From: Neoechinorhynchus agilis
Lineage: Eukaryota; Animalia; Acanthocephala
Length of the DNA stretch: 64,000 nt
NCBI GenBank assembly: GCA_051530055.1
Contig: CM121341.1
Coordinates: 9,898,784 to 9,962,783 of the forward strand
Reading direction: 5' to 3'
The notes below the pieces were generated by a model. The model saw only the letters and a list, made by a program, of their open reading frames with translations, searched no databases and was not told the DNA's origin. Positions 17,451 to 63,630 of the stretch are shown one piece after another; the stretch's first letter is position 1, and the number at the start of each line of letters is the position of its first letter. The position numbers and the translations under genes were made by a program.

Positions 17451-17900
17451 ACGAGGCACTGCAAGAAGTTCAAAGACTTTGTATAGGTGTTCAGCTAAAA
17501 GGTCATGTTCGTCTATCACATCTTGACGATGTTTCCTTGATGGCGGATAACTACGATAATCTGCAACAAATGATTGAGACACTGCAGGGCAAGCTCAAAG
17601 AGAAGGATCCTTTGTTAAGTGCAGAAAAGTGTCAGACATATAGGCAAGCCTATACGAATAATAAAATGTTTTCGATAGAGAACCGTCGGTTCAGATCGAA
17701 GGGTGTTACACTTAAAAGCGATAAAAGAAGGGGACCCGGTGAAATACCTAGGTGTCACCCTAGACGAAGGAATATCGTTGCTGGGCACCCTTTTTGAAGC
17801 GAATGAACGGGCACAACTCTCGCCGACTCAGGCCTTCCACCCGCTGAACGACTATGCAGGCGCATCCTTGGTGGCTAGGCTGCAAGCCTTCTGAAACATA
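17436..17900 (+). mobile_element. Non-LTR reverse transcriptase fragment
   Basis: FALCVDEAL..., DDVSLMAD (degenerate motif C) and PVKYLGVTL. Confidence 0.6.
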
Positions 17901-17914
17901 TCGTCTACCAATCT

Positions 17915-19260
17915 TAGATGTATTGAAGAGCAGTGGATGCCAAAGCTGAAGAAACTCCTGAGCTTTTGAAATTGCTATAGGTCGGTTCGGTTTTTAGCCA
18001 AATGGACCATCATCACGGTAAAGAATGTCGGCACGCAAGATTTCGCGAATTGAGACAAATGACAGAAGAGGATGAGAGACGGTCCCACCACCATGATTCG
18101 ACGGTGCCGATAACCGAGCAGGAGGAAGAGATGCAAGTTCAGGAACAGGAACCCGCTGACCCATATGAAGGCCTTAGCACCCTCTGCTGTAAACAGCCCA
18201 TTTTTAAAGGATGCTTTTGAATTTACGGTGGATCGGGGGAGATGGTTGCTGGAAAGGACTACTTCGTAAATCGATAATCGGTGACTGAAGAAATAATATA
18301 AAGACTACACATTGAAAACGTCGGACTGAGGCAAAGAGGATGGTGTATTATCAATCTCCTGGTTTTAGAAAAAGAAGTGGAAAATCGAAGATCGAGATTT
18401 TATGGAAAAATTAGTTAGTGATATCGCATTTCAACTAACTGGAAAACGGACGAATGCGCTTCATAAAACATCGTTGTAATCGCGTTGTTAAAGTAGAATA
18501 AAACGTCCACATTGGCAGGCAGGCGCCCAGTGGCCGTGCGGTGCGCGCGTTCATAAAGCGCTTGATATGTCGCTGGTTCAACACCACCGGTCGCTGGGTT
18601 CCACGGTTGTGTGAGGCTGCTGGAAGGGGTGGGGTCAGGTTTTGAGATCGCCCATGCCCTGTTCCTTCGAGTGCGGCTAAGCGCCTCCGTTGTGCGCAAG
18701 TTAGCCGAAAGGCTCAAAAAGGAATATAGCCGAAGCTATCAAAGAAGATGTCGCAGGACCAATGAGTGTATGTGGCCCTTGATAATAAAATAAAAATAAA
18801 ACAAATTGGCAGGCAGCTCAATTTATACTTTTCATGGAAAAACATTTTTTGACCCAATTGCCGAAATAAACGTACATCTCTAAACGAAAATCGGAATATC
18901 AACGTTTCCAGTAATTTTGAGAAATACTACTCGCATTGAGCCGCTCGTCCTAAATGCGAAGGTTCCACCATTCGCTTCAAAATCGCTCGATTCATCTTAG
19001 AACAAAAAAGAACGAAGTGAGGAACGCGAGTGCATCGATAGAAAGCGGGCAGCGATTTAGAAGGTACAAAAAATAGAAAAATTCACGGTCTCTGTAATGA
19101 TTTGGCGCCCGTTTAAAAAAATTGTCGTCATTTTTCCGCGACGCAATGGCCGAAATAAACGTATATTTTTAAACGAAAATTGGAATATCGACGTTTCCAA
19201 TAATTTCGAGAAATATTACTCACATTGAGGCGCCCGACCTTGTTACGAATGATCTATTAT
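17915..19260 (+). repeat. Segmental duplicate of ~47080-48110; includes a ~290-bp repeat unit also at 36100, 38755 and 40520
   Basis: CTTAG(A/G)TGTATTGAAGAGCAGTGGATG... shared. GAAAA(T/C)TGGAATATC recurs at 18885/19174 and 47764/48054. Confidence 0.9.
18511..18816 (+). mobile_element. 282-bp retroposed insertion with A-rich tail and 12-bp target-site duplication
   Basis: ATTGGCAGGCAG at 18511-18522 and 18805-18816 flanks a GC-rich insert ending ATAATAAAATAAAAATAAAACAA. The paralogous site at 47683-47694 has a single copy and no insert. Confidence 0.85.
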
Positions 19261-19793
19261 TCGCTCCAAAATCGCTCGATTCATCGTAGAACAAAAAGAA
19301 CGAAGTAGGGAACCAGAGTACATCGATAGAAAGTGGGCAGCGATTTAGAAGGTACAAAAAAATTGAAGAATTCAAGCTCTGTGTAATGATTTGGCGCCCG
19401 TTTAAAAAATTGTCGTCATTTATGTCGAAAAAATTAATTTGTGAGAAGTTGCCATTTAGTCCTCTTGCTCGAAGTGTTTTTAAATTAACGGTGATTTTAT
19501 TCGTTTTCTAGGCGGTTGCATATGAACTGTTTAAAAGTTCAACATTGAACCGATGGATAGTTGCAGGTTTCCTAGAATAGAAACTAACAATCGATTTTTA
19601 AGCCGCTTCGTTCGCTTAGCTCAGTTCATAAATCGCAGCACAATCCAAAATTAACAAATAACGCTTTTTATCCTAATCACATGGACCGCTTTGGGTCGTG
19701 GCCAGAAATTTTAAAAACAATTTTACTTTAAAAAAGTAAAAAACGGAATTGCAACCTAACGTTGAAACGGAAAGTGTCAAACCGCCTGCCAAT

Positions 19794-22700: not shown

Positions 22701-23520
22701 GGATTATTTTCACCAAATTTTAAATTGTCTTCAATATAAACTACGTCATTGAATTTGAACCAGCGTTAATAGTTAGGAAAGAAACGTCATGTTAATTATT
22801 GTGTATCGTACAGTTCACAGCCGGTTTTTATTAGGAAATATTCCATGGCTGACGAGTCTCCGCACCAGAAGGGTTTTCCTTCGCAAATGGGCGATTCAGG
22901 CGCAAAGCAGGATGAAGTTGAGCCTTACATTAAGTTGAAGGTAATCAGTCAAGAGATCGGGGAGGTATACTTTAAAGTGAAATCGAATACTGTTTTGGGT
23001 AAACTCATGAAGTCTTATGCTGAGCGGGTTGGTTTGCCCGTTGGGACTCTACGTTTTATGTATGACGGTAAAAGGATCAACGAGGGTGAAACAGCAAGGC
23101 ATTTGGGTATGGACGACGAGGATTGTATTGATGTGTATCAAGAACAAGTTGGTGGGCACGTTGATTGAGTTACTACTCATGTTCGAGAATAAAATATTTT
23201 ATCTGTTCGACTGTTCAATGAACTCACGGCTGATTTTTGGCTCAAGGCCAAGAAAGCTCTCTAAAGGGAAAAATATTTAATAGAAACCATTCTCCGTTCA
23301 ATTTTTGCCCCGTCTGTTTCAAACGAGACTGATCAATAATGATCTCGCTTCGCATTATTCAATAAAAAGTGGCTTTTGTTATCTCTGTAATTCAATGGTA
23401 TTCGTCGATATTCTCAAGTTTGCTTGCTTTTCTGGCTAAAACATTGCGGAACAACTCGGCGATCGGAGAACGACTTATAATGATCTTAATTATTCTTTTT
23501 TTGTCGCCATCGGCAAAAGC
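19794..23520 (+). repeat. Segmental duplication (with internal deletions) of ~58981-61050, carrying SUMO
   Basis: GTTTTGTAAAAGTGCACTTAACCTAGG at 19794 and 58981; identity resumes around SUMO and ends at CGGCAAAAGC (23520/61050). Confidence 0.9.
22845..23168 (+). CDS. SUMO: SUMO precursor, intronless
   Basis: YIKLKVISQ..EVYFKVK...KLMKSYAER.G....LRFMYDGKRI...T...LGMDDEDCIDVYQEQVGG + HVD extension. Confidence 0.95.
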   Translation: MADESPHQKGFPSQMGDSGAKQDEVEPYIKLKVISQEIGEVYFKVKSNTVLGKLMKSYAERVGLPVGTLRFMYDGKRINEGETARHLGMDDEDCIDVYQEQVGGHVD

Positions 23521-24835: not shown

Positions 24836-24849
24836 GTTCAGAGCAGGGT

Positions 24850-25310
24850 CTAGAATGTAAGGCTCAATTATTTCACGTATTTATTCCCACAGAACAAGGA
24901 AACAATTTAATCGCCTATTAGATAATATTTATTAGAATGATGGATGAAGAATATTGCCACTCAGGAAATAACAGGTATAAATTTGGAAAACTGGGAAGCT
25001 ACCATGAACAACTTACTGCTGAAATTGTTTCAAGCGTAATACCACGGATTGAAATTTCCGTCTTTTAATTTATATATCTCGCCTGAATTAGAAAATATTG
25101 AATTCGAGTTAGGTTTTGAAGTTAAATCAATTGTTAGGTTTCTAAAATCTTCAAATTTAACTGAAACTGAAGTCGTGGCTTTTGCAGGATGTTTTCGTCA
25201 TTAGGGTCATCAATTACTCTGGAGATTTAAAGAACTTCTGTGGGTATGTAACTGAGAAGAAAGATATTGATCAAAATGTTATAGAAAAATTAGTTAGTGA
25301 TATGACATTT
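24850..25310 (+). other. Endogenous rhabdo/mononega-like virus L-protein fragment 1
   Basis: Across frameshifts: DEEYCHSGNNRYKFGKL/WEATMNNLL...FPSF...AGCFRH*GHQ (25193-25213) and YVTEKKDIDQNVIEKLVSD (25245-25301). Matches the vesiculovirus L pattern GN.SY...K..E.I.N, FRHWGHP and VT.KKDID...LASD. Confidence 0.8.
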
Positions 25311-25705
25311 AAGCTCATTGAAAAACGGAACATTTAATTGTGTTTGAATTAAGTGGCTGAATGCCGGAAACTACAAGTTGGCAGTTGTCTTAGCATTAAC
25401 TTCCAAACCAGCTTATCGGAATATAACAAATATGCTTCCTTGGAAACTGGTTTTATACAAAATTCACGGACAATCAAGATAATGTTATGGTATAAATTGA
25501 CAAAAAAGTTGTTCAAAAAATTACAAAGAGAAGAATTGGATTTGACATTGCTCTTGCTCCTGTTCGCTGCCGCATCACCAAGTGGAGCGGCACGCCGACC
25601 CCGCGTTGACAGGCTACTATCAGTAGCTGTCTGGCCGCCGGAGCTGCTTCTTTTACGTGGCCGACAAGAATCAGTAACATCAAGTCCGATCATCGTGGCA
25701 GCATT

Positions 25706-28909: not shown

Positions 28910-31900
28910 CTAAATTTATGACGTCACAGTCGGCACGGCAGAATCCGAGAGGTCAACGTTCGGCTGCATTGTGTAAAGAAAGACCTCAAAAAAGACCGGT
29001 CGAGACAACACAACGAATTCTCAGCTAGCTTATCGGTCGTTAATTCAAGAATGCTGTCGAGACCTATTGAGAAAGTTTCGCAGGAAATTACTATATATAT
29101 AACGCAGAAGTTCAGCCTTTTTGACACTAGAAGACAGGAAGACGCTGCAGGGTAGGAATAAAAAAATTTTGATCTTTTGTTGATTTGTCAAAATAACACG
29201 TTTTGGACGTGAAGAGCAGATACGAAATTGAATTGGCCTGAAATATGTCAATTTTACTACTTCGTCACGCTCACTCTTACGCCATGGAAAGAACTAACGA
29301 AAATGACAAACTTCCGTGGCAGAAATCTAAAGGGAAATTCCTGCGTATTCTTAGAATCACTGCTAAGAATGCACCGGCGGATTTCTACAAAAGATGTGCT
29401 AAGGAAGAAAAAACACTCGAAAATTTGCAGAAAATGGCTGAAGAATATTTACATTTTGCGACAGTGCTGAATGATCATTATGCGAAAGAGCCCTGCTCTC
29501 CCGAGGGAGTGCCGGGATGGACGCCGTTGATCATCCTCCACTTCGAGATGAAGGCGGAGGTTTTCGGACTTATGAGGTATTTGTGTTTTCACTGTTAACA
29601 CCCTCCCCCTATTCCCTGCTGAAATCCCTCCCCAGACCTCTCCTTCCCTCTGATTCGACTATCCAAGTTCCCATAACCAAACTTCCCATCAGAAAGGAGG
29701 ATTATATCCTTCGCATTCATAAAGAAAATATGGGCTCCAAATACAATATTTTGGAAAAATACAACAAACATACTCTCTCATCACACCAACGTAACCTTCC
29801 CACTTACCGTAACAAAAAAATTTCGACAACAAGTTCAGCTTTCTCTTTGCCTTTGTCGACAACAAGGGAAAATCCATATTCTCAGATATGCTTACAGATA
29901 TGAAAATAAAACATGATTATCTTTCCAGAAAAGTCTCCTTCTTGATGACCAACCCTCCTCTTGATCTCCCGATTGACGAACAAAAAATTACTGAGAGCGA
30001 TCTCAAAATCAAACTCATAAAATACCTATTCCGCAAAAACAGTAGCTCTCCATATGCCTTTCTTTGCCCCGCCCCAATTGATGTAGCTGATTGCTTATGT
30101 GGTTCCAAAAAAAGTGTGTTCTCGCATTTTGTATCCTTCACCAATTATAGGGATTCGATCTACGATTTCAATCTCGCTCCCACTGGGGTCATCAGCCTCA
30201 TGGATGCAAAATCACTCCTAGGTGTATTTTCTGCGCTGGAGACCACTGCGAGGATAAATGTCCGGACCCCAAACAAAAGTCAAATGCGCCAATTGCCATC
30301 TTCCTCATCCTTCTTTCGCCAGATCATGCCAAGCTGCTAAACAATTTTTGGCCCAATGCTCTTACTTGGCCAAGAAACCTCTAAAGGAAACCATCATCAA
30401 ATCTAGCTTTCCCGTTCCTGGGCCCATAAATATGAATTCTGGCGCACCCTCCTTTGCATCCCCCCAAAAAGTTCTCTCCCCAACCTCAAATTCGGAAGGT
30501 CCTTGCCGTTACTGCTCCCGTGGCCTTTTGAAGTCCCCCTCACATCGCTCCTCAAGTTCTGTTTTCCCTACTTCTAGCTCTAACTAAAAACCAGTATTTC
30601 CCTCAGAATCTGAAGCTACTCCAATTATTCCGATCCTCTTGCAGGATATGGAATCCATAAAAAAACACCCTTAGTTGTCTACTGGGCATCATGTCTGCTT
30701 ACGGCCTTTTAAAAGAAAGTCAAAGCAGCCCTTCCGACTCGGAGGAGATGATCATCGTCCCCTCCCCAAAAAAACCCTCTTTGTCATCTTTCGAGTTTCT
30801 TACTCATAAGAAAGGCAGGGTTAACTAAATAGAATGTTTAAGTTCGCTATAACTACACATAATTTATCGAGAGCTTTTTCTCTTCCCCCTCATATTCTAA
30901 ACCCAATTTCCGATTCGATTCCAGACATCCTCTTTTTTCAGGAATCTCTTCTGACTCCTACCTATCTTTTTTTCTTCCCCCCTCTAATCCAGGGGCGAAT
31001 AATCTCATTGGGTTCTCCGGAGGCTTGCAATCTTTTATTCTCAGGAAATGGCAACCCAAATTGCTTGTCCAGGAAAAAAAACAGTGATTTCACATTCCAA
31101 ATTATTTCTATTCTTAATCCTCTCTACTCCCATCTCCCTTTCTTGGACACTCATCTTATTATCATTAACGTTTACGTTGCTCCCCGTAAAATTCCTTCAT
31201 TCCTCAAATCCCAAGCCTACAAAGTTTTGAATTGGAATCCAGATATTATTGGGGGAGATCTCAATTCTAACTATCTGATAGCTTTCCGTGAAACCTTCAA
31301 ATTTCATAATTGTATGTTACCTAAGTTCTCCTCGTTTCACAGCTTCCATAAAAACGCTCACCTCATTCTTGGACGGATTTTTTATAAAAAAATCGCTTCC
31401 CTTCTCTCTATACCCGACCCTTCAATTACAGTCACAACAGTTTATGGGGCATGATTTTATTTTATTTCAACAAACGGATTCATCTTTAAAATCCCTTAAT
31501 GATTCCATTGCCCTCTCGCTTAATAGCAAGTCTCTAATTTCCCTCTCCGATTTTAACCACATAATTTTAACCTCGGCTGAATCCTGCTTGGTCAAAAAAT
31601 CCTTTGTACCAAGGGCTCAAAAATCCAAAAAGGCCAACCAATTTTATCGACAAGCTATAATAGCTAATCTTAGGAACCTACCTGACCTTCACCAAACTTT
31701 TATGAATCGATTTTATTATACTCTTCACTACGAGGACCCCCTTCTAAGCCTTTATGGAACATAATTTTTAACAAGAAATTTACTAGTTGGAAAGCTAAAG
31801 CTTCCAACTGGATCGGTTCGGTTTCTTATCCCGTGGTAATTTAAACCATTCTGAATGCCCACACTTTTAGTGCCTTTTCGGATCCCCCTATTCCCATTCT

Positions 31901-31997
31901 TCGACATAAGAAGTTTAATGTCATATATCATTGTCCTCGGGGTGAATTTGATTGTGCGTTGGCGAATCCTTTCCCCGGTGTTTTCGTTACTCATTTA

Positions 31998-32047
31998 TTT
32001 TAGAAATATTTCGCAAGGTTTTCCTTGCCTCTTCAGTCTATCTAAAA
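31998..32047 (-). ncRNA. Minimal hammerhead ribozyme in the inverted pseudo-LTR
   Basis: Reverse complement: ttttagataga-CTGAAGA-g-GCAAGG aaaa CCTTGC-GAAA-ta-T-T-tctaaaa (perfect 6-bp stem II). Confidence 0.8.
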
Positions 32048-33898
32048 TGGAGGGCATAGACAGCATGCACAGCCGGTCACGTCTGGATGTAGCTCAGATC
32101 TGCGGGTTTGCTAATACCCGAATTGTGGGGAGTTCCATCCGCACACACCTCTTGCGGTTTGTTGCCGACTAATTTGCCCGTCATGCTACGCAACTTTGGT
32201 AGCACCAGCGTGTGCCTGGACTCTGGCAAGTTCGTCAAACTCAGTTCCAATCCAACAGTAAAACGGGAGACACAACTAAATGCATTCTTGAGGACTCTAC
32301 GGAAAAATAACTCGATTACTGAGCACTTTCATCAACATACGAGGTCTTCTACAGCCAGGGCTTCCTTCTTGTATCTTTCCCCAAAAATACACAAACCAAC
32401 GATACAATACCGACCAATAATAGCCAGCTACAATGCCTTCAATCATCGTTTGGCCCGTAGAATCAATGCACTAATAAGAAGCGTAATGCCGAACACTCCG
32501 TCATACATAGCTGACGGCCCTTCCTTTGGAACCCGAATGCGACTGGAAAAGTATGCACAGTGCAAATTCTTCACGGCCGACGTAAAGTCCTTATTTACCA
32601 ACATTCCACTCCAAGAGACAATTTCCATAGCAGCTGAACTTCTACAAAATCAATGCGAAGAACCGCGCCTTGATCATAAAACGTAGATAGCTCTACTGCA
32701 GTGGTGCACATGCAAGACCGTTTTTGAATTCGATCAAGTTTTCTATGAACAACGCGACGGAGTTGCAATGGGTTCACCTCTGGTACCCACTCTAACAGGT
32801 CTCTACATGAGAAGATGGGAAAACAACTTCTTGAAAATGCAATCCAACATCAAAATCTGGTATCGCTATGTTGACGACGTGTTCATAGTCACTGATGATG
32901 AAACAAGCATGGGAGACCTAAGCATTCCACTCAACATGAAGGATTCAAACATCCAGTGGTCAATGACTCAGGAAGACGACGAGGGTGCTATCTCCTTTTT
33001 GGACGTAAGGATAAAACACGATGATAAAGGCAATATCAAAACACAGCTCTATCGCAAACCAGGTATAGCATGGGGTCCACCTCACTGGTCGAGCCACCAA
33101 CCGTTCCACTATAAAATAACAGCGGCAACGTCCTACTACTTCAAGAGGGCCAGGATGATTTCTTCAGAAAGCAGGGATTGGGAAGAAGAAAAACAAAATA
33201 TCACCAAAGTTCTCAGATAACGAGGCTTCCCTGAATATGCCATCAAAATCAGTCTGAAAAAGGCAAAACAGCGGCCACCGCAAGAAGAAGGAAACCGCGA
33301 GCATCTCCCTCGAATACACTGACTTTTACCACATAAGAGGGAACGCGACCGAAAAACTGAGGCGCCTCAACTACCTCGCTCCAAATCTTTTGATCTACAA
33401 CAAACGGGGCGCATCCATTGCGGGCATTCTCAAGAGGAAAACCAAGCAAGAGACCAAATTAGGGATATACAAAATCCCATGTGCAGAATGCCCAAAGGTC
33501 TACATTGGACAAACCATGCAAGGGATCATTAAACGGATTTCGCAGCATAAACAAGCTTGCAGGACATTCGACAAATCCTCAGCAATCTCGAACCACCAGC
33601 AAACAATCCAGCACAAGGTGGATTTTGAAAAGGCGAGATTCATAACCAGCGAACCGGATCTTAGAAGAAGACTGATTCTTGAGGCCATTCACATCCGGGG
33701 AAATCCGACGATAGAAGGCGATAAATCAAACCACACACTGGTGCTACCAAAGTTGCGTAGCATGACGGGCAAATTAGTCGGCAACAAACCGCAAGAGGTG
33801 TGTGCGGATCGAACGCCCCACACTTCGGGTATTAGCAAACCCGCGGATCTGAGCTACATCCAGACGTGACCGGCTGTGCATGCTGTCTATGTCCTCCA

Positions 33899-33947
33899 TT
33901 TTAGATAGACTGAAGAGGCAGGGAAACCTTGCGAAATATTTCTAAAA
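33899..33947 (+). ncRNA. Minimal hammerhead ribozyme in the 3' pseudo-LTR
   Basis: taga-CTGAAGA(33910-33916)-g-gcaggg aaa ccttgc-GAAA-ta-T-T-tcta; stem II has a G-U pair. Confidence 0.78.
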
Positions 33948-39399: not shown

Positions 39400-39429
39400 G
39401 AGTTGCTTCATTTATGAATTTTGATTCCA

Positions 39430-43760: not shown

Positions 43761-43789
43761 ACCGATGACATAGTTGCGCCGGAGGCCGA

Positions 43790-45669: not shown

Positions 45670-46130
45670 TTATGTATGCTCGACAAAGAAATAAAAATGA
45701 ACAATTAAAAAAAAATATTTCGAGATCAAACCCATATAGTTAAGCTCCTTGATGATGACCGTCAGATCTTCTGCATACCAAGTGACAGAAGGGCATATTG
45801 AACAGTTCTGGTAGACTCTGTCAAATGCTATCTTGATATCAAAGGAGATTAAGATATTCATAGGTCGGACACCGTTAGAAAAATTGCTAATTATTTCTCT
45901 TATTGCTGTGAGCACAGATTTCCCGAGTAAAAAGCTATGGCAGCGGTTATCGATGCAGCCGTGTTCCATAGCGAATCCAGTATCCAAAATTAATTCTGGC
46001 CGTTATGCCTCAGACTTTCTGCCCAGTAATTCGGTCCGGACGGAATTTCTTAGCCGGTCCTACCACTTCCTGATACAAACTTCGAAGAACAACATTATCT
46101 GCAACTGTTGGCATCCTTTTTGACTATCAC
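45670..46130 (-). mobile_element. Non-LTR RT fragment
   Basis: HSFLLGKSVLTAI, ISFDIKIAFDRV and WYAED. Confidence 0.65.
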
Positions 46131-46139
46131 TTCAATGAG

Positions 46140-48790: not shown

Positions 48791-48799
48791 GACCACCAT

Positions 48800-49530: not shown

Positions 49531-51856
49531 TATCCGCAGATGGTGTTCAATAGGTTCTACGAAGCTTGGAACATCTTTCCAGGAGCTCACTTTACAAATC
49601 AATATTGTTCATGTTCATCAATCTCGCATAGAGTTGAATCGTCAGATAATGCCGAGTTTCTGCACTGGTTTCCATCATTCGCAAAATATATAAAATCGCA
49701 ATTTCACCTGAACAAAGTGTTTCGTACAAGATTGAAAGGAACTGCCTAGAGGGTTATTATCGATTAGATGGCCTAGTAACAGAGAAATCTTAGAAAATTC
49801 ATGTCGAAAAAAAGATGTTGTTGCTAAAGATTGGTACAGGTCAGTATAATACTTTGACTGCGTGGGGGGCATGATATAACTTCTCGAGCTGTTCATTATC
49901 CGTATCTTGAAAGGTCAATAAACTTCCCAAAGCAAATCGCGATTATCTTTTAGGCGACAGTCGATGTAGCTGAATCATTCAGTGACCAATCATATGGAAT
50001 CTGAATACCCAATAGTTTTAGAATCGATATTTTATTACATCCTAAACATATGAATGTAATAAAATAAGTGCACGAAGGTAAAAAGAGTTCATTTTTCTTG
50101 CCGGAATTCATCCGCCATTCAACATAGAAATTACGGCATTAGGCACCTTTAACGGATTCAAGTGTCAGCCATCGCTCAACCTTACATTCAATACTCCGAG
50201 TACAAAAGGAGGCAATCCACTAAGGTCGAGATCGCTCCAAATGAATATAAGCGACTGAAACAGAAAAATTCGTAAATTGCACAAAAGCTTGAAAACTTTC
50301 CGAAAATAATCGAAGCACTAAAAGAGCAAACGGAATTGCTTAACAAACAAATAGAGCACCAAAGAAATCAATTCAGCAATTTGGGAAATAACTCTTCCTT
50401 TAACACTAATTCCAAAATAGTACTTTCAACAAAATTTAACAGTCGCGATGAACAAAGAGGTGAAGCTAAAGAACTCCGATGCTTTAAGCGTATCGAGAAG
50501 TTGTTTGTAACGATATAAATGATTGGGGTCTTACAAAACTTCAAATTTTCGATTGCCGCCCACAGTCTGTCTAAATGTTTGAATGGCTATAAAAGATGAA
50601 GAAATTTCAATTTTAACTTTTCAAGAAACTGGAGTTCCTGCTCTTATTGATTCTAGTAAAATCGATGGTTTGATTTTTTACCTTTGCGGCTACCAAGTAA
50701 TACTTTAATGGCCGTAAGATTTTCAGGTGGGCTGATGAATGTCTTTTATAGATATAAACAGTTAGGGAAAGTCTCTTTTTTGGTTAAAAATCACATAACA
50801 AAGAAAGCGTAACATTTCGGGTCATGATTTTATCCTCTTTATTCATAATGGGCAAAATTAGAAAGACAGAATTATTTTTAATCAGTAGTAGTTAATCGAT
50901 TTCAACAAATAAATATCTAGATTCCTAGATCTAATCAAGAAATGTAAGCCTGCAGGCAGTACCAAAGCAGAATTTTAACCGTATCCTCCAATTATTAAGC
51001 GACGAAATGTTTTATAAAAAGAGACACTCTTATTGAGTAGCTAATCTATTCTACACACTTGGTATTCTGTCGAATTAAATAAATAACATCAAACAATCAA
51101 AACTTTATAAATCTTTTTTTTTGAAAAATTTGTCACAATCAACTGAAAATGGACTTGAGAAAGCGTTAATTTTTATTATAAAGTAGAGTTCGTAAAGTTT
51201 CTTTATTTTTAATCATTGGAAAATATTCACTCCCGATATAATAGTTACGATCAATCAGATGTTCTTAATATACTTTAAAACGGCCTTTCTCCCAATCGAT
51301 TTAACTACGTAATTTCTATCAGGTAATCGCGATCTAAAACATTGAATTTATGGAACCACTGCCATTTTCTTAAAAGATAAACCTGAGGGTTGTACTTTAA
51401 GTTCTAAAAAATATTGGAAATTGTATCGCTGGCATTTATATTCAAGGTTTTGCCTGATATTATGAATGCTTAATACTGATTGCTTTTTGTACGAGCAACG
51501 AGGAGGCCAATGCGCAATAAGATTTCATCGAACGTTCTAGAGTCCTTACGGTACTCACTTTTTTGTGAAGAAGCTTTCTATTTTTGTTTCAAAATGTAAA
51601 TGTTCGCATTGCCGCTTGCAATTCAATAATGAAGTATTTTCGACTACAAAGAATGTTCTTGAACTCTAAAAAAATAGATATATAAATACGTGCTGATTTT
51701 AGACCAATTCTCGGCTAATTATGAAGTTTTGTGCGTGGACAACTTGAGATCGTGCGAATATTGCGGTTGATCTTTATTAATAAACAATCTTTAACACAAC
51801 CATCAAATACATTAGCAGAAGTTTGTACTCGTACAGTCTCATTTCGATCGTTTGAA

Positions 51857-52735
51857 TCAGTGGAATTTCAGAGGAAATGCACCTGAGATTCTATGAATTA
51901 TAGAGCGTATCCTGAGGAAAATCATTTGGCCGAGTCTCGCTGTTTGGTATTTGCAAGCACGATAATATGTTTGGAATGATGGTTTGTTTGATCCAGGAAA
52001 TAACCACTGAACAGCATTTTCGATGAAGCTCTTGCACTTAATGGCAGTTGCCGATACAACCATCGACCGTTCTTTGTATCTTATCTCCATCTCGAGATCT
52101 TGACTCGTCTCGTGCATAAAATTTGATAGCTGGTCATTTTCAGTTTGAATCGCATGGTACGGAACCTTCATCGAAGTATAAGTCTTTTCGAATTCCTTGA
52201 TCCAAGTATTTAGGAGATCAATCTGACGATCTTTTCTAGCCAACATTCGTTCAACTTCACCAGTATGTACATTCAAGTCATCGATTTCCACTTCAAGTTG
52301 CTGAGTCTGATTTTTTTCCTTCGTGAGCAATTCTCTCAAGTTATTATTTAAAACTTCCATGTCATCGATTTCATTTTTAAGCTTTGATAACATCACTGTA
52401 ACTCGAGATTTTGTTTCGCGAGCCTTATTTTTACACTTGTTTTTATTTTCCTCCACGCGTTGTTCCATCATTGTACGATATTTACGCAAATTCAGTCTAA
52501 TTTGATTTATTTCATCTTTTACGATTTCGTCTTTATTCCGATATATTTCCAACTCTTTCTGACACTTCACAATATCCGTTTGTAAATCTATAACAAGTTC
52601 AGTTATTGGTTGTCTTTCTAACTCGCTGTGAGTTTCCGCTATTTGACTCTCTGATAATGAATTGATCATTGGACTATCAAGCACAGGTTCGTCTTCGATT
52701 TCAATCGTTTGTTCAACTTGCTTTGGATTGCTCAT
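51857..52735 (-). CDS. Coiled-coil protein of unknown function (292 aa), full-length copy
   Basis: Uninterrupted ATG ORF with heptad-like E/K/L-rich middle; lies within the inverted duplicate 52136-53356 of 16216-17435. Confidence 0.75.
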   Translation of the reverse strand: MSNPKQVEQTIEIEDEPVLDSPMINSLSESQIAETHSELERQPITELVIDLQTDIVKCQKELEIYRNKDEIVKDEINQIRLNLRKYRTMMEQRVEENKNKCKNKARETKSRVTVMLSKLKNEIDDMEVLNNNLRELLTKEKNQTQQLEVEIDDLNVHTGEVERMLARKDRQIDLLNTWIKEFEKTYTSMKVPYHAIQTENDQLSNFMHETSQDLEMEIRYKERSMVVSATAIKCKSFIENAVQWLFPGSNKPSFQTYYRACKYQTARLGQMIFLRIRSIIHRISGAFPLKFH

Positions 52736-53301
52736 TTCGCTTTATTGTTGTACGTTTTTTTAACACACTAAGCGTGCTGAATCGGATTGGCCATATCAGA
52801 GTTCTAGTGAAATTTGGTAAATAAATTACTGGTTATTATGCCCTAACGAGCGTGCTTTTGAAAGCAAGTGAAAATCGATTTTATGGATATTTTCGTAAAC
52901 ATATTTTGCAATAGGTTAGGCGTGTGAGTTACTTTAAAACATAATTGAAATCTTCTTCTAAACAACAAAGAAGCATATTATTGCAATGCTGTCAAAAAAT
53001 CTCGAGTGCAGACTTTAGTGATATATTCCCCTACCAATTGTATTTTGAGCAATTAAATCTCTCTAAATTTTTGTTTCCAATTTTGTAAATTAATCGATGG
53101 AATCGCTATTGGGAATTGAAAATAAAATTAGCCCGGACTACAATAACGACAAATAAAAGTGAGGATCTACTTTTCGATCATGACAATGCGACCCTTTGCT
53201 CACCTCAGTCTCACTTCAATGAGCAATGAAAAACTTTTGAGTTTTAGCAAAACCTCAAAAGTTCGTTCTTAGTCGACAAAGAATGCCAAGTATCAAGCGC
53301 G

Positions 53302-53356
53302 ATGTTTCCTGAATACACTCTTTATTACTTTGATCTCGAAGGACGAGCTGAAGTTA
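53302..53356 (+). pseudogene. GST 5' stub (first 18 codons)
   Basis: MFPEYTLYYFDLEGRAEV is identical to the start of 15614..16270, then unrelated sequence follows. Confidence 0.9.
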
Positions 53357-54039
53357 CACACAAAATATTTTTGACGGAGGTACAAGCTACAGTCCAAGTG
53401 GATGGGCCATATGGCGGACTGGGCTCTCTGGGTTCAAAGATGGACACAAATGGAAGAGGAGTACGCGAGACGCAAGATGTTAGAAGCGCTGGAACAATTG
53501 GGTGGACTTGATAACCCAAGTTTATCCCAAATGTTGACAAAGGGTCATTGTGAGCAATTCGGCATTAAGGCTACTCCATATTTACTAGATTCTATCTCTG
53601 ATTTTAAAATGGGTAAAACAATGGATCTATGTCGAATGATAAACAGTTCTCCAGAACATGTAATTGCATCAACTCTGCCCTTTATCGAGGTCACGGATAA
53701 TTTGTTAAAGCTCTGTGTAAGCTTAAAAGCCTATTGGAACACTGTCTCAATACCAACTTAGAAATCTTCCAATTACAATTAGCAATAGAATCTATAGGTA
53801 GCAAAATTGACCAAAATCCAGTTCATTAATCGATGGATTATACCATTACCAACAAATTGCAGTTCATTTCCACGACTAAGATGAACAGTAGGAATTCCAT
53901 AACATCATTGGGTATGGATTTTTAATGGACTTACAAAATTCCAACAATCCAATCGATGCATCGCCAAAATCACTTTCACTTGGTAACACTGTCCAATCTC
54001 TTCACTTTTAAAAGCAAGACCACCAACTTTATTCGTGGT

Positions 54040-57000
54040 GCTTTGTGGTAGTAGTCATTGCCCTACAAGACCTACTTAACAAGAGCAGAAGTAGTGACCT
54101 CTTTACCTCTCTTAAGGGGCCGCGATGCTCTGGGATCGATCTGATTGAACGTTTGTTGTCTTAATTTTTTCTTTGAAGGATAATTCAACGATGCCACCAC
54201 CGCCGTCAACGATGCCACCACCGCCGTCCCCTTGCTCCGCTCCGGCCGAAATCGATCAGACGACCAACCCCACATCAATCACCAGCACCGCTTCCTCTAC
54301 GCTAGGCGACGAAGTACCGACCACCCCGAAGTCACCGCCCAAAGCCAAGCAATCAGACGATGGATATTGCGACGGATCAGATTCATCTCCCAGCCCTATA
54401 CCTCCAAGAAGGCTCAGGACGATCTCAGCATAGGATAGGTTTTTCCGAATTTCCAAATTTCATCACAATGTGTTCAAATCGCCTACAATCGACGCTGGTG
54501 ACGCAGATAATTTGAACGCGCCACTCATCGATCATGGTCAACCTGAGAAGACCAACGCTGCCGGGCTCCCACGCGTCTCTACTGGTTTGTGTCCGGTTTG
54601 CGGTAAGTCTTTTAAATTAACTAATCTGGGGTTTTTGTTCGTCCATGGTCCCCGGGATCTCCGCTGTAGTGGGTCTGGTTCTCCACCACAATTAACCGAA
54701 CCTTTTGTGCCTGAGACCCCTCAGATCACCACTGATTCTATTTCGATACCTGATATCGTGCGGTTTCTGCCCAGGAACGTCCTGAAACGGATCCCTAAAG
54801 GCGCGCGATATCTGGTCGCCAAAGCATTTTCGGGATTGGTCAACGATTGCCTGCAAACGAACTGTGCGCCATCATGGACACGGCTCTTCGCTTTCCCGCG
54901 CTTAGTCCTCTGCACCAGCGGTGATTCTGGGGTGTCTTTGACATCAACAATCAAGGAAAGGTTAGCCTCCTTTGAACAAATATTCAACGATTTTGAAAGG
55001 AATCTCCGCGAGGTTCGTAATCGACGCACGAAGGAAGTTTCGCTGCCGTTTTTCAAAACGGACACTGACTGAGCGTGTCTCTTCGAAGCTTGCGGACGGG
55101 GATGTTCGGGGGGCTGTTCGGTTATTGTCATCCTCCGACAGTTTCGCAAAAGGAGACAGCGAGACGCTACAAATACTCCAGTCGAAGCACCCATGTAGTA
55201 GCGGAAGTTTTGAAATTCCATCTCCTCCCAATTGTCCACTCGCTCCGAAACTTTGCTACGAGAAGCTCAGAGTCGTGCGTGATTCTTAAGTGCGATTTTC
55301 GGAACGCCTTTAACTCTCTCAATTAGGGATCACGCACCAGAAGCCTTCCAGTATTTTCTCAATGCCTACGGAACCGCGACTCCTTTGCTTTTCGAAGACC
55401 ACCTAATTTGGTCCGAAAGAGGAGTGCAGCAAGGAGATCCCCTCAGTCCAATCGCATTCTCCCTAACAGTAAATCCAATAGCGCATTCTCTCCATTCCAG
55501 CTTCAACGCTTGGTACTTGGATGACGCTACGCTCGGATGTGATCCCTCCGTTGTACTGCGCGATCTGGAGACGCTGATTAGGGAGACCTCGAAGATGGGC
55601 ATTGAGCTTAATGCTGGAAAATGTGAGCTCCTTGTACTGAATATTGGAGACGCCGCCAAAGTCAAAGAACTAATGGCTGGGTTCGAGGCCGCAGCTCCAG
55701 GCCTGAAACTCGTGACTCGGGAACAACTCAACCTCCTGGGCAGTTGCGTCTTCGATTAGAATGTGGAAGATGAGATCGGCCATATCATACCGAAACGTTC
55801 GTTGCTGTGCTATAGAGTGTGCGCTCTCTCGGCTCATGAACCCTTGTTTCTCATAAAGAACGCGCTCTTCATCCCCAAATTATTGTACAAGGTTCGCACA
55901 GCAACATTTTTCAAACATAAGGAAGGATTGGCTAAGCTCGACGGCAAGGTGAGGGCTTGTCTCGAGCGTATTTTTAATGTCCAGCTCTCAGATGAGGCGT
56001 GGCGACAAGCTTCTTTGCCTGTGTCATCTGGGGGATTGGGAATTCGGGCACTAGTGGACCTTGCTTTGCCGGCCTTTCTTGGATCGTTTGAGGGGAGCCT
56101 ACCAGTCTCGAAGAACATTTTGAAGGAAAAGTTCTGTCTTGGCCGGGATTTCGTGGTTGCGGTTGAGGAATGGTGCCAGCAGACAGGCGCTAACCATGTT
56201 CCCGTGAATGGCCTCAGACAGTCGATCTGGGACGGACCTCTTGTCGCGAGAGCTCACAGCTCTCTACTTTCCGGTTCTCGCGATGGGGTCGTCCGAGCTA
56301 GACTGTTGGCAGTTTCAACACGAGAATCTGGGGCGTGGTTGGAGGCTGTTCCTCTGGCATCAGTGGGAACTCTTCTTACTGACGAGGTAACGAGGATCGC
56401 AATATCCTTAAGACTTGGTTTCCCGGTATGCACGCCCCATCGCTGTCGATGTGGGTCTTTGGTTGATGCTTTCGGGCGACACGGTCTCGTCTGCAGAAGG
56501 TCAGCAGTAAGGTTCTCACGCCATTCTGAAATCAATAACACAATTTCTCGGGCGTTGAGAACGGCGAACTTGCCGAACATCCTGGAACCCGCCCACCTTT
56601 GTGGAATAGACGACCGTAGGCCCGATGGAATTTCGGTCTTCCCGTGGCGGTAGAGCAAATGCCTTCTCTGGGACGCCACGTGTGTGGATACCCTCGCAGC
56701 CAGCAACATCCCCTACTCCCTCGAAATCGCCGGTGGTGCCGCCAGTGCAGGGGAAGGGAGGAAAATACGGAAATATCTTCACTTACCGAGGGCTCACTAT
56801 TTTGTCCCCTTTGGGGTAGAGACGTATGGAGCGCTCGGCAGCTCGGCACTCTCTCTGCTCCAGGATCTCTCGAAGAAATTGAGAGAGGCAACCGGAGACT
56901 CAAGAGCAGGCGTATTCCTTCGACAAAATATCTCGCTAGCAGTACAACGGGGCAATGCTGCCAGCGTGATGGCGACGGTCGAGGAAGGACAAAAGCTGGA

Positions 57001-57060
57001 ATTCGGCGGGAGGTGGTGAGTGTGTTAATTGTCGAGAAATGAAGATTGATTGAATACATT
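54040..57060 (+). mobile_element. Near full-length CRE-type RLE retrotransposon, inactivated
   Basis: Zn finger CPVC..VHG..C, KRIPKGAR, KCDFRNAFN, GVQQGDPL, WYLDD, CCHC knuckle, RPDG. Stops at 55072 and 56653; RT domains 1-2 deleted near 55230. Confidence 0.9.
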
Positions 57061-58586
57061 TATCGTTATTGACAAAAAAATCTTTTTAAAAAATCAAAGC
57101 ATTAGAAAAAAAACTAACAATTATCAGCCAATAATGGATTTATTCACTAAAAATTATAATGATTACATTGGGAATAGCAATGGTTATGATCAAAATGACC
57201 ACGGTAATGAGTTTAGTTAAGAAAATGTTCATCAAAACAATGAGACTATCCAATAACCGACTATTCACTAAATTCTCCTAATATTGATTGTATAATCGTC
57301 AAACGGGACGGGTTCGATCATACATCGGACCACTGAAATCCGCTGTGACGTCAAAATGAGATCCAAGCCTTGACCAAACTCGGATGTAGGTGGCGCTAAT
57401 TGCGGTTTTCTCTCATCTTTTCAATTCAACTAGTGACTGTTGCCTTAAATTGTATAATTTTATGTTAAAATAATTGGCGGACCGAATTTGGTCCGCGGTC
57501 AGTAGTTTGCCGAAAGTACAAAATTCGGACACATTACCTGACTATCTCCCTGGGCTAAGATATTAACGACAGCATTTCCATTTTTTTACACACTAGACAA
57601 TAGGCTAATAATACACCAGTCCTTTTTGTGTCCTCTTCTGAATTAAAACAGGTTCTAGACTCCATCAATCAGAACATTTGCTCTGACTCCAATTACAACC
57701 ATTGCTCCACATCAGAATGCACGCAATCTTTCACATCAGCGTCTGAAACTTTTGTCAATTCGAAGATACTCCCCTTAGTTTCGTCATACGAAGTACTACA
57801 GCATCTCAAGAAATTACCTCGAAATTCGTGCTCTTCATCCGAAATCCAAAACTGGGCTCTTCGCTGCATCAATGTATACGAGATCGCACGGTACGATTTG
57901 GTGACACTCGTGGAAATGTTCATGCTGAGGGTCGCAAAAGTTATCACGTGATTCATAATGTACAAGGCGAAGAATCGCGCTAGCCAGTCGGTCGTGTTGA
58001 ACGGCGAACACAACATCGAAGCAACATGAAAGGTTTTTCCTAATGGACCGTGTCAACCCAGTACCAACAACGCTCTGGATAGTTTGGATGTTGTTACATC
58101 TAAAGTACCAGTTTCAGGCATAGGTGAAAGACCATTGCACGGTGCAAAGGCCTCTTGCGCCGCTTACAGTTGAATGTACAGAGACGAACATTTTGAATTC
58201 TCGGCCTATTCGCACCAGATTGTATCGTGTATGTTCCTCATCGCATCGTTCAGCGGTCGAAATTGCAATCCAGTGATCATTCAGGATGTCTCGGCTCCAC
58301 ACTCGACTACCTTCACAGTTGCAAAAGCTTACGATTTCGTACTAACCTGTTTGAACTCTCCGAATTAGCATCCAAGATAATCCTTTTCTATAGTCTATGG
58401 CCTCGCTACTTCGAGAGCATCGATTTCAATTTGATCAGTCTTTTTTGGACAAAATTTACGGTACTTATTTGGACTACCTTCGATGTGGAAACGAAAGAGA
58501 TCATCCGTCCCTCACAGCGGCAGCAAAATCCTTTGGCCCAAATATTATCTAGCTAAAAAAGTGGGGCAGAATGAGCCTAAACGCGG

Positions 58587-58877: not shown

Positions 58878-60373
58878 ACCGACACTAAAACCGTCCAATC
58901 AATCGAAGGCGTAATCGTGCGCTTTACTTCGCAACTCCCTTGTCACACAATCTCTACGAGGTGGTCAACTGTCATCCAACGTTTTGTAAAAGTGCACTTA
59001 ACCTAGGAGCAGAAATTTCTCTCTCGCTCCTGAGCTCGGATACAAACTATCATCTCCTGGAAAAGGATGTTTAATTCGAATAACCTCGTGCCTAGCCGAC
59101 ATTTTCAAACGTAAATCAGAAAGCATATTTCGCCTATCCCACTGAAAAATGGCCACCGGTTATACCTAAACAATCATTACAAAAATGACGGTCTAAAAAA
59201 GAATCAATCATTTCATCTCTGGAACAATGAGGTTCTACCTAACAACAAAAAAGGCCCTCACTCATTCACGACTTACTAAATTCCAAACCCACCACGAGAT
59301 CTTCACAGTCTTCACAGAGTTCATTTTCCTAAATGTTGCCACTGTGCCGATGATAACCACGTCTCGGAAAAGTGCCCGAATTCTAAAAATATTCGTTACA
59401 GGACCAAATCTTGAATTTGTTTAGCCGCGACAACGCACCTTTCCCCCCGCACCTCGATACTTGCATTTTCTAGTCCATCGAAGATATTTCTCAAGAATAG
59501 CATTCCTATGTGTTGCTCAGCTGGTAGTCTTTTTATAGATATGTTTATTTTTTCCATACTGGGCCCAATAATATGTCCTATATAGAAGACGGAAAAAATT
59601 GACTGAATCTCCTACTGCTTGGAAAAACCAATTAGGTTACCACTAAATAGAATAATGCAATTGATTATTTATTTTTGTCATTAATTGCCACAGATGGAAA
59701 ACTGTAACAAAAATAAAAATGTTAACTTAATTCGGTGTTACCGTGGATGCTAGCGGTCGACCTAAAGATTCCGGAGGCTCGAATAATTCGAGTGCACAAT
59801 AGTCCAGACGATGAGATGGGCTAGGCGATGGAAACTGATTTATAAGGATTTTTAAAAACGATTCGAAGGCTCCGTGGGAGCATGCTAGAAAATGAACAAA
59901 AACAATCATTTTCGAAGTTAAATCGCTTTTAGGAATTGCAGTTATCTGCTGATTGTCGATAATCTGCAATTCTGGAAATTGTTCAGTGATCACAAAAACA
60001 TCTCTAGGACGTTTATTAAGAAAACAAGTCTCATAAATAGAGAAATGCGAATAACTCAGGAAATATTGCAGCTATCCAAAATCTGAAAACATGTTTGGAA
60101 TAAGCTCGTCAAAAGTCATAAGCGTGTTAGATCATGAAAATTGCAATAAACAACCAATTTGATGTCTCCGTGAATCGTGCAAACGATTTTCGAAGAAATA
60201 TCGCTTTCTTATCAACGCTTAGATAATTACTTCGTCCAGCGATTCTTTTTAAATTGTCTTCAATATAAACTACGTCATTGAATTTGAACCAGCGTTAATA
60301 GTTAGGAAAGAAACGTCATGTTAATTATTGTGTATCGTACAGTTCACAGCCGGTTTTTATTAGGAAATATTCC

Positions 60374-60697
60374 ATGGCTGACGAGTCTCCGCACCAGAAG
60401 GGTTTTCCTTCGCAAATGGGCGATTCAGGCGCAAAGCAGGATGAAGTTGAGCCTTACATTAAGTTGAAGGTAATCAGTCAAGAGATCGGGGAGGTATACT
60501 TTAAAGTGAAATCGAATACTGTTTTGGGTAAACTCATGAAGTCTTATGCTGAGCGGGTTGGTTTGCCCGTTGGGACTCTACGTTTTATGTATGACGGTAA
60601 AAGGATCAACGAGGGTGAAACAGCAAGGCATTTGGGTATGGACGACGAGGATTGTATTGAAGTGTATCAAGAACAAGTTGGTGGGCACGTTGATTGA
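60374..60697 (+). CDS. SUMO: SUMO precursor, second intact copy
   Basis: Identical to 22845..23168 except CIDVY changed to CIEVY. Confidence 0.95.
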   Translation: MADESPHQKGFPSQMGDSGAKQDEVEPYIKLKVISQEIGEVYFKVKSNTVLGKLMKSYAERVGLPVGTLRFMYDGKRINEGETARHLGMDDEDCIEVYQEQVGGHVD

Positions 60698-61055
60698 GTT
60701 ACTACTCATGTTCGAGAATAAAATATTTTATCTGTTCGACTGTTCAATGAACTCACGGCTGATTTTTGGCTCAAGGCCAAGAAAGCTCTCTAAAGGGAAA
60801 AATATTTAATAGAAACCATTCTACGTTCAATTTTTGCCCCGTCTGTTTCAAACGAGACTGATCAATAATGATCTCGCTTCGCATTATGCAATAAAAAGTG
60901 GCTTTTGTTATCTCTGTTATTCAATGGTATTCGTCGATATTCTCAAGTTTGCTTGCTTTTCTGGCTAAAACATTGCGGAACAACTTGGCGATCGGAGAAC
61001 GACTTATAATGATCTTAATTATTCTTTTTTTTGTCGCCATCGGCAAAAGCAAACA

Positions 61056-61596
61056 ATATCGACGAATACCATTGAATTACAGAGATAACAAAAGCCACTT
61101 TTTATTGCATAATGCGAAGCGAGATCATTATTGATCAGTCTCGTTTGAAACAGACGGGGCAAAAATTGAACGTAGAATGGTTTCTATTAAAGATTTTTCC
61201 CTTTAGAGAGCTTTCTTGGCCTTGAGCCAAAAATCAGCCGTGAGTTCATTGAACAGTCGAACAGATAAAACATTTTATTCTCGAACATGAGTAGTAATTC
61301 AATCAACGTGTCCACCAACTTGTTCTTGATACACTTCAATACAATCCTCGTCGTCCATACCCAAATGCCTTGCTGTTTCACCCTCGTTGATCCTTTTACC
61401 GCCATACATAAAACGTAGAGTTCCAACGGGGAAACCAACCCGCTCAGCATATGACTTCATGAGTGTACGCAGAGCAATATTTGATTTCACTTTAAAGTAT
61501 AATTCCCTGCTCTGTGGGACTCAACTTCATCCTGCATTGCGCCTGAATCGCCCATTGGCGAAGAAAAGCCCTTCTGGTGTGGAGACTCATCAGCCA
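61056..61596 (-). pseudogene. SUMO: Inverted SUMO pseudogene with 3' flank, forming a fold-back with 60375-60940
   Basis: Reverse complement of the upstream SUMO gene and flank. ATG changed to TTG, a ~20-25 bp deletion in the YIKLKV region, several substitutions; 115-bp spacer. Confidence 0.9.
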
Positions 61597-61989
61597 AGAT
61601 TGATAAACGATATCATTTCTAGAATGTTACGGGAAATATGTTTCGAAGTTTCATTTGGCGGAACTTTTCCAGCATTTCGATGGAAATACCCCAAATGGCT
61701 TATACTTTCCTCATAGCTTAATTGCGTTTTTGAATAAATTTAGGTACCCTTTGTTCAATATGGCAAGACTAAATGCATTCACATTGTTTTTAATCTGTGC
61801 AAATCAAGAATCCCGTTGATTGTGCTTTTTAAGAAGCATTTTTAATTTTTTGGGACACATGTCTGAACAGCAAGGAGCTTGATTCTAATTTCTACCAAAC
61901 GACCTCTTTCTTATTCTCCTTTGAGCAACGCAATCATCAAAATAGTACCAACGTCAATTTGATGCCTGAGTCCAATTCACGATTTCCCT

Positions 61990-62515
61990 GCAAGTGGTAT
62001 TGGTTATCGATAAAGCTTTTGTCCTACAAGGTGCCTTTTTGGAGCGAGGTTCCGGTGCTTATCAATCTTGATTATCTGTAAATGATTCAAAATGTTCTGA
62101 GGTCAATAGTGTATAGCCTTATCGGCTAATAGATACCAGGAAATGGAATCCGGAAAATGTTCAGTCATCTCATAGACAAAGTCTACTCCTTGGTCGATAA
62201 AGTTTATTGTCATGCAGGAAACAACGGGTACTAATCCGGAAAACTGTGGGAGGCAATCATGAATAGTTTCTTGTTTGACTTGTCTAGAAACTCATATAAA
62301 GAATTGGATTTTCCATCATTTTGGTTGTTGAATCTGGGTTTAAAAGTTTGGATGATGACTTGAGTATTCAAGTAACTTCGTTTGTTGATTATCTAAACAA
62401 TTGGACCTCATCACGACTTAAGTAGTTGCTCCTGCGTGTTGTTTCCAGCATTGGGCATCCGACTATTGATTATCAAGAAGGGCTAAAAGCAATCCATTAG
62501 TACGTGACAGAACCA
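61990..62515 (+). other. Endogenous rhabdo/mononega-like virus L-protein fragment 2
   Basis: VYSLVDKVYCHAGNNGY*SGKLWEAIMNSFLFDLSRNSYKELDFPSF (62181-62321) and FQHW/GHPTIDYQEGLKAIH*YVT (62443-62509). Compare vesiculovirus L GNFSYDLIKMVEPICNL..FPHF and FRHWGHPFIDY..GLEKLH.QVT. Confidence 0.85.
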
Positions 62516-63630
62516 ATATGGGCTCTGCTAAAACAATTTTCTCGTCTAATGCGCACGATTTGGAACCCGATTTTTGTTGGAGAACAATATGTGATAGTCG
62601 GAGGGCCACTTTTCTTACCATGTGCTCATGGGTGCTTTCGAGATGCAGACGGCCCAGACATTTTATGTGGTTACAGTGACATTGGAGGGCGGCTCCCAGG
62701 TGGTCGAGCGGTTTACGTTCGGCCGCGAGAACTGCATTGGTGGCTTTCCTTACGACGTCTTCGGATCATCAATTAAGGGGCTCTAGATGAAGGAAAAGAC
62801 TATGTTTTCTCTTCTTGTGTTAGTTTGTCCCTGTCTGAGAAAGGACTTATAGATTATGAAGAGGTGGAGTTTGGTGTTGACGTTAATAGTAGACTAAAAG
62901 GTTTTGACTCAAAAGCAGGTAAAATTATATCAAAGAATGAATTATGTTTGAAATATTTCATCCAATCGCACTGGACTTCTTCAGTCAGGTATTGCTTGTA
63001 AGTTTTAACAATCGTGAACAATATAAAGAGGCTGGTTTCAAGATATTAATGGCAAGTGAGTTTAAACGTCTTAGTGTTTGCCCTACTCTGAAACGGATCA
63101 TTTGAAGTGTTCTTCTATCTCATCACTCAGTGTGTGTGAATGGATGGTATGATGATGAGCATTGGGAGAGCCGAACACGGTTGACTTCATTGGTGTGAAA
63201 GAGTGGTGGCAGACACACTGGTGTATCGGTTAACAACGGGAATGCCTTCTGGTTCCAATTTGACGACCTTCTACAATTCATTGGCTTATGCAATTATATT
63301 GTCTCAAGCGGTGTTTGATAGCCTTCACAGTTTAAGGGGTATCAGGGTTGCGACGCCATGGAAAAACTAAAGCCTTTGGAATGGTTTGGTCACTATGGTA
63401 TGGTTTATACCGATGCAAACAAAGGTCAGGCATTGTCATTGTTGGAGTCCGGAGAAGTATCTTTTCTTAAGAGAAAGTTTCTTCAGCTATGAAGTACGCC
63501 AGTTATGCTAATGAGTTTGGATGATGTTGCAGTCCCTCAAATGATACAGAAAAACAAGCGAAACTCGGACATGGTCCACTAGAGCATTGACGGAAGGAGC
63601 AGCAATTGAAGTTGCTTTACATGGTCGGAT
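62516..63630 (+). other. Endogenous picorna-like virus RdRp fragment, heavily decayed
   Basis: EEVEFGVD..GFDSKAG (~62860-62918), VNGWYDDEH..R, motif B GMPSGSNLTTFYNS (63239-63280), GMVYTDANK, FLKRKF (63463-63480) and IEVALHG (63605-63625). The GDD motif is deleted. Confidence 0.88.
62949..62987 (-). ncRNA. Minimal hammerhead ribozyme motif inserted in the picorna-like fragment
   Basis: Reverse complement: tga-CTGAAGA-a-GTCCA gtgcgat TGGAT-GAAA-ta-T-T-tca. Flank 62915-62948 is homologous to 8900-8930. Confidence 0.6.

Follow-up and report, generated by a model that had tools for sequence, protein, structure and literature searches.

The stretch of DNA analysed here, called the window, comprises 64 kb of the acanthocephalan Neoechinorhynchus agilis (41% GC, without N) and belongs to a 19.4-Mb contig, on which its SUMO gene lies and where one N. 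agilis protein is identical to an ORF at 44 kb. From 18 to 63.6 kb it is a repeat-dense genomic stretch in which copies of three kinds of RNA virus, chroparavirus-like, rhabdovirus-like and picorna-like, persist as decayed DNA. These are non-retroviral endogenous viral elements (EVEs): all three groups show homology to RNA-virus proteins above chance, and the copies lie in host DNA, between host flanks, and carry stops and frameshifts. An earlier reading of the sequence alone had proposed at least three RNA-virus lineages (noda-, rhabdo- and picorna-like) as short broken fragments within ~46 kb, and viral matches were found for each of them. Its inventory stood as far as the lineages are concerned; the number of rhabdovirus-like pieces had been underestimated, the host genes and SUMO duplicates in the range had been overlooked, and the supported viral sequence amounts to only ~3.1 kb of 45.7 kb (~7% of bases), with 2.5 kb on the plus strand. 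No viral match was obtained in window 1-17,899. The compact-genome animal that had been supposed as host is indeed N. agilis, with a published assembly described as 46.2 Mb, 94% of it in three scaffolds (PMC12690905), and a reported PIWI-interacting RNA (piRNA) pathway (PMC12256650).

Viral pieces between 18 and 63.6 kb

The viral pieces, several of which contain parts of an RNA-dependent RNA polymerase (RdRp), are the following:

18,323-18,450, plus strand: rhabdovirus-like L, motif-B region followed directly by an N-terminal RdRp piece; 16.2 bits; vesicular stomatitis virus (VSV) L 681-704, E 0.38
24,898-25,329, plus strand: rhabdovirus-like L, N-terminal RdRp region (profile 292-403), frameshifted and with stops; 10.3 and 13.1 bits, colinear
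36,928-37,350, plus strand: chroparavirus-like replicase piece, joined straight onto the end of a Gypsy reverse transcriptase (RT) fragment; right boundary approximate
37,390-38,576, minus strand: chroparavirus-like methyltransferase, N-terminal half (profile 4-173), in two frames; PF19223 E 7e-12 and 1e-18
38,934-39,399, plus strand: chroparavirus-like methyltransferase, C-terminal half (profile 173-302); PF19223 E 1e-11
47,495-47,622, plus strand: rhabdovirus-like L, duplicate of the 18.3-kb fragment
57,505-57,630, minus strand: rhabdovirus-like L, motifs B-C; 19.0 bits; rabies L 700-742 (PDB), E 0.004
62,028-62,515, plus strand: rhabdovirus-like L, N-terminal RdRp region (profile 226-380), interrupted by several stops and frameshifts; 14.2 and 14.2 bits; tblastn E 2e-7
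63,161-63,549, plus strand: picorna-like RdRp, motifs B to E, frameshifted; 29.4 and 26.6 bits; Pfam RdRP_1 E 5e-4

The Pfam scan covered 359 of the 763 open reading frames (ORFs), being all those of at least 66 aa together with those of at least 40 aa within seven candidate regions. The chroparavirus methyltransferase family PF19223 was found in three of them, each above the curated cut-off, which identifies the fragment formerly called noda-like as noda-related. The matches correspond to 37,605-38,576 (profile 4-96, E 1e-18) and 37,390-37,647 (profile 104-173, E 7e-12) on the minus strand and to 38,877-39,440 (profile 173-302, E 1e-11) on the plus strand. The N-terminal half, with a 324-aa ORF that makes it the viral piece with the least decay, is inverted with respect to the other two chroparavirus pieces, a repeat copy lies between the halves, and an IMG/VR contig of RNA-virus size (L449) matches it in tblastn (E 5e-4). 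The replicase piece has 116 nt in common with the C-terminal half (36,928-37,042 and 39,285-39,399, 90.5% identity), and the remainder of 36,928-37,350 would be viral judging from the open frame 36,933-37,475, for which no viral Pfam match was found.

For the picorna-like piece, a profile of 59 RdRps scores 29.4 bits at 63,191-63,319 and 26.6 bits at 63,379-63,549, whereas the next-best place in the window reaches 7.8 bits and the best control 8.8 bits. The Pfam RdRP_1 match to this piece stays under the cut-off. No close relatives of the chroparavirus-like and picorna-like ORFs were found among viral contigs or metagenomes. Also, the segment 62,912-62,987 between the last rhabdovirus-like piece and the picorna-like piece was considered as viral and rejected; it is a short repeat with inverted ends, similar to a miniature inverted-repeat transposable element (MITE), that is present also at 2.6, 8.5 and 8.9 kb. 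Its copies are:

MITE-like repeat copies: 2,547-2,638; 8,460-8,586; 8,895-8,971; 11,954-12,045; 62,912-62,987

The rhabdovirus-like pieces are five, one of them a local duplicate. They were recognised with a profile of 72 L proteins, drawn from 120 motif-matching viral loci, that matches seven stretches at five places in the window with 10.3-19.0 bits: 18,323-18,391 and its duplicate 47,495-47,563, two colinear stretches at 24,995-25,325, one at 57,505-57,624 (minus strand) and two colinear stretches at 62,055-62,512. The reversed window gave no match at 4.5 bits or more, and the best of six further controls reached 5.3 bits. The PDB matches agree for two pieces, those at 18.3 kb (VSV L) and 57.5 kb (rabies L), and none of the rhabdovirus-like pieces had a Pfam match among the ORFs scanned. 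Taken individually these similarities are weak, and together they constitute strong support for the rhabdovirus-like origin that had been suspected. The 18.3-kb piece lies in a 613-nt segment (17,910-18,522) that is repeated at 47,082-47,694 with 97.6% identity; the part upstream of the 18.3-kb piece (17,910-18,320) is without database support, and the frame 17,882-18,451 found no match among 1.84 billion representatives.

A comparison of the pieces with one another gives 65% nucleotide identity over 321 nt between the 24.9-kb piece and 62,152-62,479, and 82% between 18,390-18,450 and 25,269-25,329, which points to several donors or ages. Moreover, the differences between the 24.9- and 62.2-kb pieces show an excess at third positions (13/9/20 over 44 codons) that hints at separate viral donors, with little weight because the blocks were chosen by protein similarity.

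Genomic support and retroelement setting

Raw whole-genome sequencing reads of run X8, whose sample and study differ from those of run X1 (possibly the assembly's own source), were assessed over 28.5-48.4 kb and 44.1-64 kb and cover 30 of 30 bins in both intervals. The depth is ~13-23 in unique bins and 36-48 in local duplicates, indicating that the duplicates are true second copies; for example, the 47-kb rhabdovirus-like duplicate has about twice the depth of unique bins. Contigs of X1 run across virus-host junctions at 37,006-38,564, 43,659-45,206, 57,051-57,658, 61,372-62,977 and 63,033-64,000, and contigs of putative RNA runs do so at 61,435-62,483 (X4) and 38,903-39,495 (X2), so that several of the junctions on which the sequence-only reading made its proposal depend are spanned. 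An assembly chimera, or contamination of viral or host-gut origin, is very improbable and largely refuted: although the same concern has been voiced for EVEs on unplaced contigs of Pomphorhynchus laevis (bioRxiv 2024.09.25.614983), and the chroparavirus bins (12.6-12.9x) are at the low end among the unique ones, the size of the contig, the reads of another study in all assessed bins, the DNA and putative RNA contigs across junctions, the stops and frameshifts in the viral pieces and the double depth of the duplicates argue against it.

The viral pieces are interleaved with scraps of Gypsy RT, RNase H and integrase, of Penelope-type RT and GIY-YIG and of long interspersed nuclear elements (LINEs; APE and RT), and here domain matches bear out the retroelement debris described earlier. 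The CRE, RTE and R2-like clade labels of these scraps are presumptive and based on motifs. The coding scraps of transposable elements (TEs) make up at least 24% of the range, a lower bound, which within the window is the dense, nested TE content expected of a piRNA cluster. The elements and repeats among the viral pieces include:

32,093-33,866, plus strand: Penelope-type element with RT and GIY-YIG, multi-copy; X8 depth 200-430
36,104-36,958, plus strand: Gypsy-type RT fragment adjoining the chroparavirus-like piece; RVT_1 E 6e-30
43,722-45,414, plus strand: orphan broken coding insert within a LINE copy, 55% GC; annotated N. agilis ACOME3_002324
54,149-57,023, plus strand: long non-LTR element, which we take to be CRE-like; RVT_1 E 8e-11
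289-nt repeat family copies: 18,802-19,510; 36,066-36,218; 38,722-38,817; 40,550-40,817; 47,680-48,117

The 289-nt repeat family adjoins or surrounds most viral pieces, and the C-terminal chroparavirus piece, together with a Penelope scrap, is embedded within one of its copies. Joints in X1 and X8 from 38,879/38,881 to ~40,165-40,206 correspond there to uninterrupted repeat copies or alleles. The Penelope element (31,904-33,992) has 264-nt inverted ends, and its empty site is also present in the reads, which means a polymorphic element or further copies of the flanking sequence that do not carry it. The CRE-like element has many copies elsewhere (X8 depth up to 1,900), including a 95% identical inverted copy at 3,641-4,861.

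The orphan insert had been read as a probable toti-like double-stranded RNA (dsRNA) capsid, a proposal that found no support. Searches of Pfam, NCBIfam, PDB, Atlas and homologues gave no match to 43,722-45,414, nor did a comparison with 198 toti-motif loci and eight capsid clusters, a reference set mostly of fungal-type viruses with which a remote relative is conceivable, and the ORF has no close relative in viral contigs or metagenomes. The predicted structures (two folds, pLDDT 30-35) were unusable. An X1 joint connects 43,718 to 45,743, and a paralogue with 59-67% identity (ACOME3_010430) is present on a 61-kb N. agilis contig. A GC-rich broken insert within a LINE copy, with one paralogue, fits the pattern of a foreign insert; the sequence comparisons speak neither for a toti origin nor against one. 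The 61-kb contig is a second candidate EVE-rich locus.

Transcription and a possible small-RNA role

Runs X2-X5 come from one study and were kept as contigs, from which neither strand nor level is readable; their RNA nature is a guess, and their pattern of high depth on SUMO (290-567 in X4 and X5) and silent stretches (0 over 50,076-52,067 and 53,396-54,059) fits RNA. The depth is also near zero over 30,492-31,819, and 25-28 of 30 bins are covered, with silent gaps between them. These putative RNA contigs suggest transcription across 61.4-64 kb, weaker over the other viral pieces. In X4 they tile 61,435-63,988 with depths of 67, 23.5 and 12.7, and X5 has 29, 7 and 4-5 there, the depth increasing in the 3' direction of a transcript from the minus strand. 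Two features of this region are relevant:

60,302-61,596, strand not assigned: copy of the SUMO gene with a second, partial copy behind it in inverted orientation; arms of 459 nt that are 96% complementary, around a loop of 113 nt
62,076-62,136, minus strand: candidate 61-nt intron with GT...AG ends, antisense to the rhabdovirus-like piece; skipped in an X5 contig of depth 29

The candidate intron is close in size to the 50-nt intron of a host forkhead gene and is retained in an X4 contig and in the X1 DNA contig. The 61-nt gap suggests that a transcript running antisense to the rhabdovirus-like and picorna-like pieces is spliced; its end would be close to the inverted copy of SUMO.

The best candidate reading, held with a little better than even confidence, is that the locus is a piRNA-cluster-like trap and source of small RNAs; as part of it appears to be transcribed antisense, it would likely feed the silencing system of the worm. 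Retroelement RT can capture viral RNA, and the chroparavirus-like piece joined to Gypsy RT suggests such a capture here: resident retroelements would reverse-transcribe viral RNA and the cDNA would be inserted at the locus. Long host transcripts, at least one of them apparently spliced and antisense to viral genes, would then be produced and cut into PIWI-bound small RNAs, with transposons as the probable main targets at present. An antiviral effect is plausible only for the chroparavirus-like piece, the least decayed, and a functional "immune memory" is doubtful for the rhabdovirus-like and picorna-like pieces because of their many stops and frameshifts. In favor of a trap are at least three virus lineages, with several rhabdovirus donors or ages, in 46 kb, and a host PIWI pathway known from the literature: two PIWI matches, clustered piRNAs and ping-pong are reported for N. 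agilis, as is the lack of cellular RdRP (PMC12256650); zucchini is likewise reported lacking in N. agilis.

Several observations weigh against a trap. The clustering of EVEs is unproven, as the counts come from this window alone, and the 18 rhabdo-like sequences described for P. laevis and the orphan paralogue on another contig make a wide scatter possible. The intron appears in one of the two putative RNA runs there (one contig, among the joints listed) and could be a deletion allele; the RNA identity of X2-X5 is only guessed, for a single study and from contigs that give no strand or level. The putative RNA depth is only 3-18 on the chroparavirus-like, orphan and 47-kb pieces, and that on the 57.5-kb piece is confounded by the adjoining repeat. 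Expressed host genes lie inside the range and parts of the range are silent, which is hence not one continuous unit. Finally, 79% of the virus-supported bases are on the plus strand, as are 72% of TE coding bases (8.6 kb against 3.4 kb), a strand bias of only 72-79% from few, non-independent pieces. The dual-strand character formerly assigned to the locus is not established either, since the orientation is skewed to the plus strand and the sole strand clue is a minus-strand transcript.

Less probable, and still a serious possibility, is a passive graveyard: a low-recombination, satellite-adjacent region that tolerates any insertion, where the RNA would be read-through from duplicated host genes and have no silencing role. 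A 135-nt tandem array off the window start, the 34% of the window that is self-duplicated, the interspersed host-gene duplicates, the heavy decay of the viral pieces and the many structural variants in the reads are consistent with it. However, spliced-looking antisense RNA over an EVE, RNA across EVE junctions, three virus lineages together and the clustered piRNAs reported for the species (PMC12256650) speak against such a graveyard, none of them decisively.

Rather improbable is a heritable antiviral memory like that of Aedes, in which capture would be repeated, spliced antisense transcripts would be made into piRNAs still active against a chroparavirus-like virus in circulation, and the capsid of an undescribed acanthocephalan virus group would be represented by the orphan. 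Also improbable is a hairpin or endo-siRNA locus, where the 64-61 kb transcript would enter the inverted SUMO copies and form long dsRNA for Dicer-type siRNAs, with the EVEs as passengers. The inverted arms (60,483-61,513) do adjoin the transcribed EVEs, the RNA depth over EVEs peaks there, and the repeat is predicted to fold as one long hairpin of -762 kcal/mol (0 of 20 shuffles equally stable). Double-stranded RNA from this inverted duplication could be directed at a host gene that is essential. Nonetheless, none of the contigs listed spans both arms, and a hairpin accounts for the last 4 kb only.

Comparison with known loci and neighboring genes

The kind of locus is already known and the phylum is new. 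Core piRNA clusters of Aedes are described as trapping antisense EVEs, driven by host-gene read-through (bioRxiv 2022.08.22.504762). Like them, the N. agilis locus holds several RNA-virus lineages as short fragments amid retroelement scraps, and it has nearby host genes that could drive read-through and a clue to an antisense transcript. Its fragments, known from DNA and putative RNA contigs, are older and sparser (~7% of bases) and lie mostly among non-LTR and Penelope scraps, and the host differs as a spiralian parasite reported without cellular RdRP and zucchini. As compared by description, the fragmented, divergent rhabdo-like L copies resemble those of P. laevis, where 18 rhabdo-like sequences are on unplaced contigs and their host origin was left open (bioRxiv 2024.09.25.614983). 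The N. agilis copies, in contrast, are on a 19.4-Mb scaffold, supported by reads and accompanied by chroparavirus-like and picorna-like pieces, which removes the contamination doubt attached to the P. laevis sequences. In the dog whelk, also a spiralian, a rhabdovirus-derived EVE is reported to give antisense 5'U piRNAs (PMC6085071), and host antisense transcription may be shared with N. agilis, where one splice clue points to it. The dog whelk case is, in the available account, one EVE of a nucleoprotein for which small RNAs were demonstrated, with no locus context, whereas N. agilis offers a multi-virus locus context from sequence.

For N. agilis no report of EVEs was found, and for Acanthocephala none of EVEs of chroparavirus or picorna type, in a literature search that left most subscription journals outside and brought up only the rhabdo-like sequences of P. 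laevis. The locus records germ-line infections by chroparavirus-, rhabdovirus- and picorna-like viruses in a phylum with hardly any known viruses, and it bears on the open question of EVE-trapping piRNA clusters outside arthropods. Moreover, small-RNA data of N. agilis are already public (BioProject PRJNA1127840, cited in PMC12256650), so that the locus is directly testable.

No family match was obtained for the ORFs at 29,242, 46,155, 53,375, 57,696 and 58,581. The range also includes host genes that look intact, along with duplicates of them (SUMO), and a third SUMO copy is at 22,773-23,165. A pair of GST and coiled-coil genes at 15,617-17,447 has an inverted 97.6% duplicate at 51,860-53,359, in which GST is truncated by the silent sequence 53,360-54,150. 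The forkhead gene, divergent and presumably FoxO-like, is present as two copies (1,504-2,378 and 10,911-11,866). The tandem array of 135-nt units occupies window 1-1,067, continues past the window start and possibly marks a satellite boundary.

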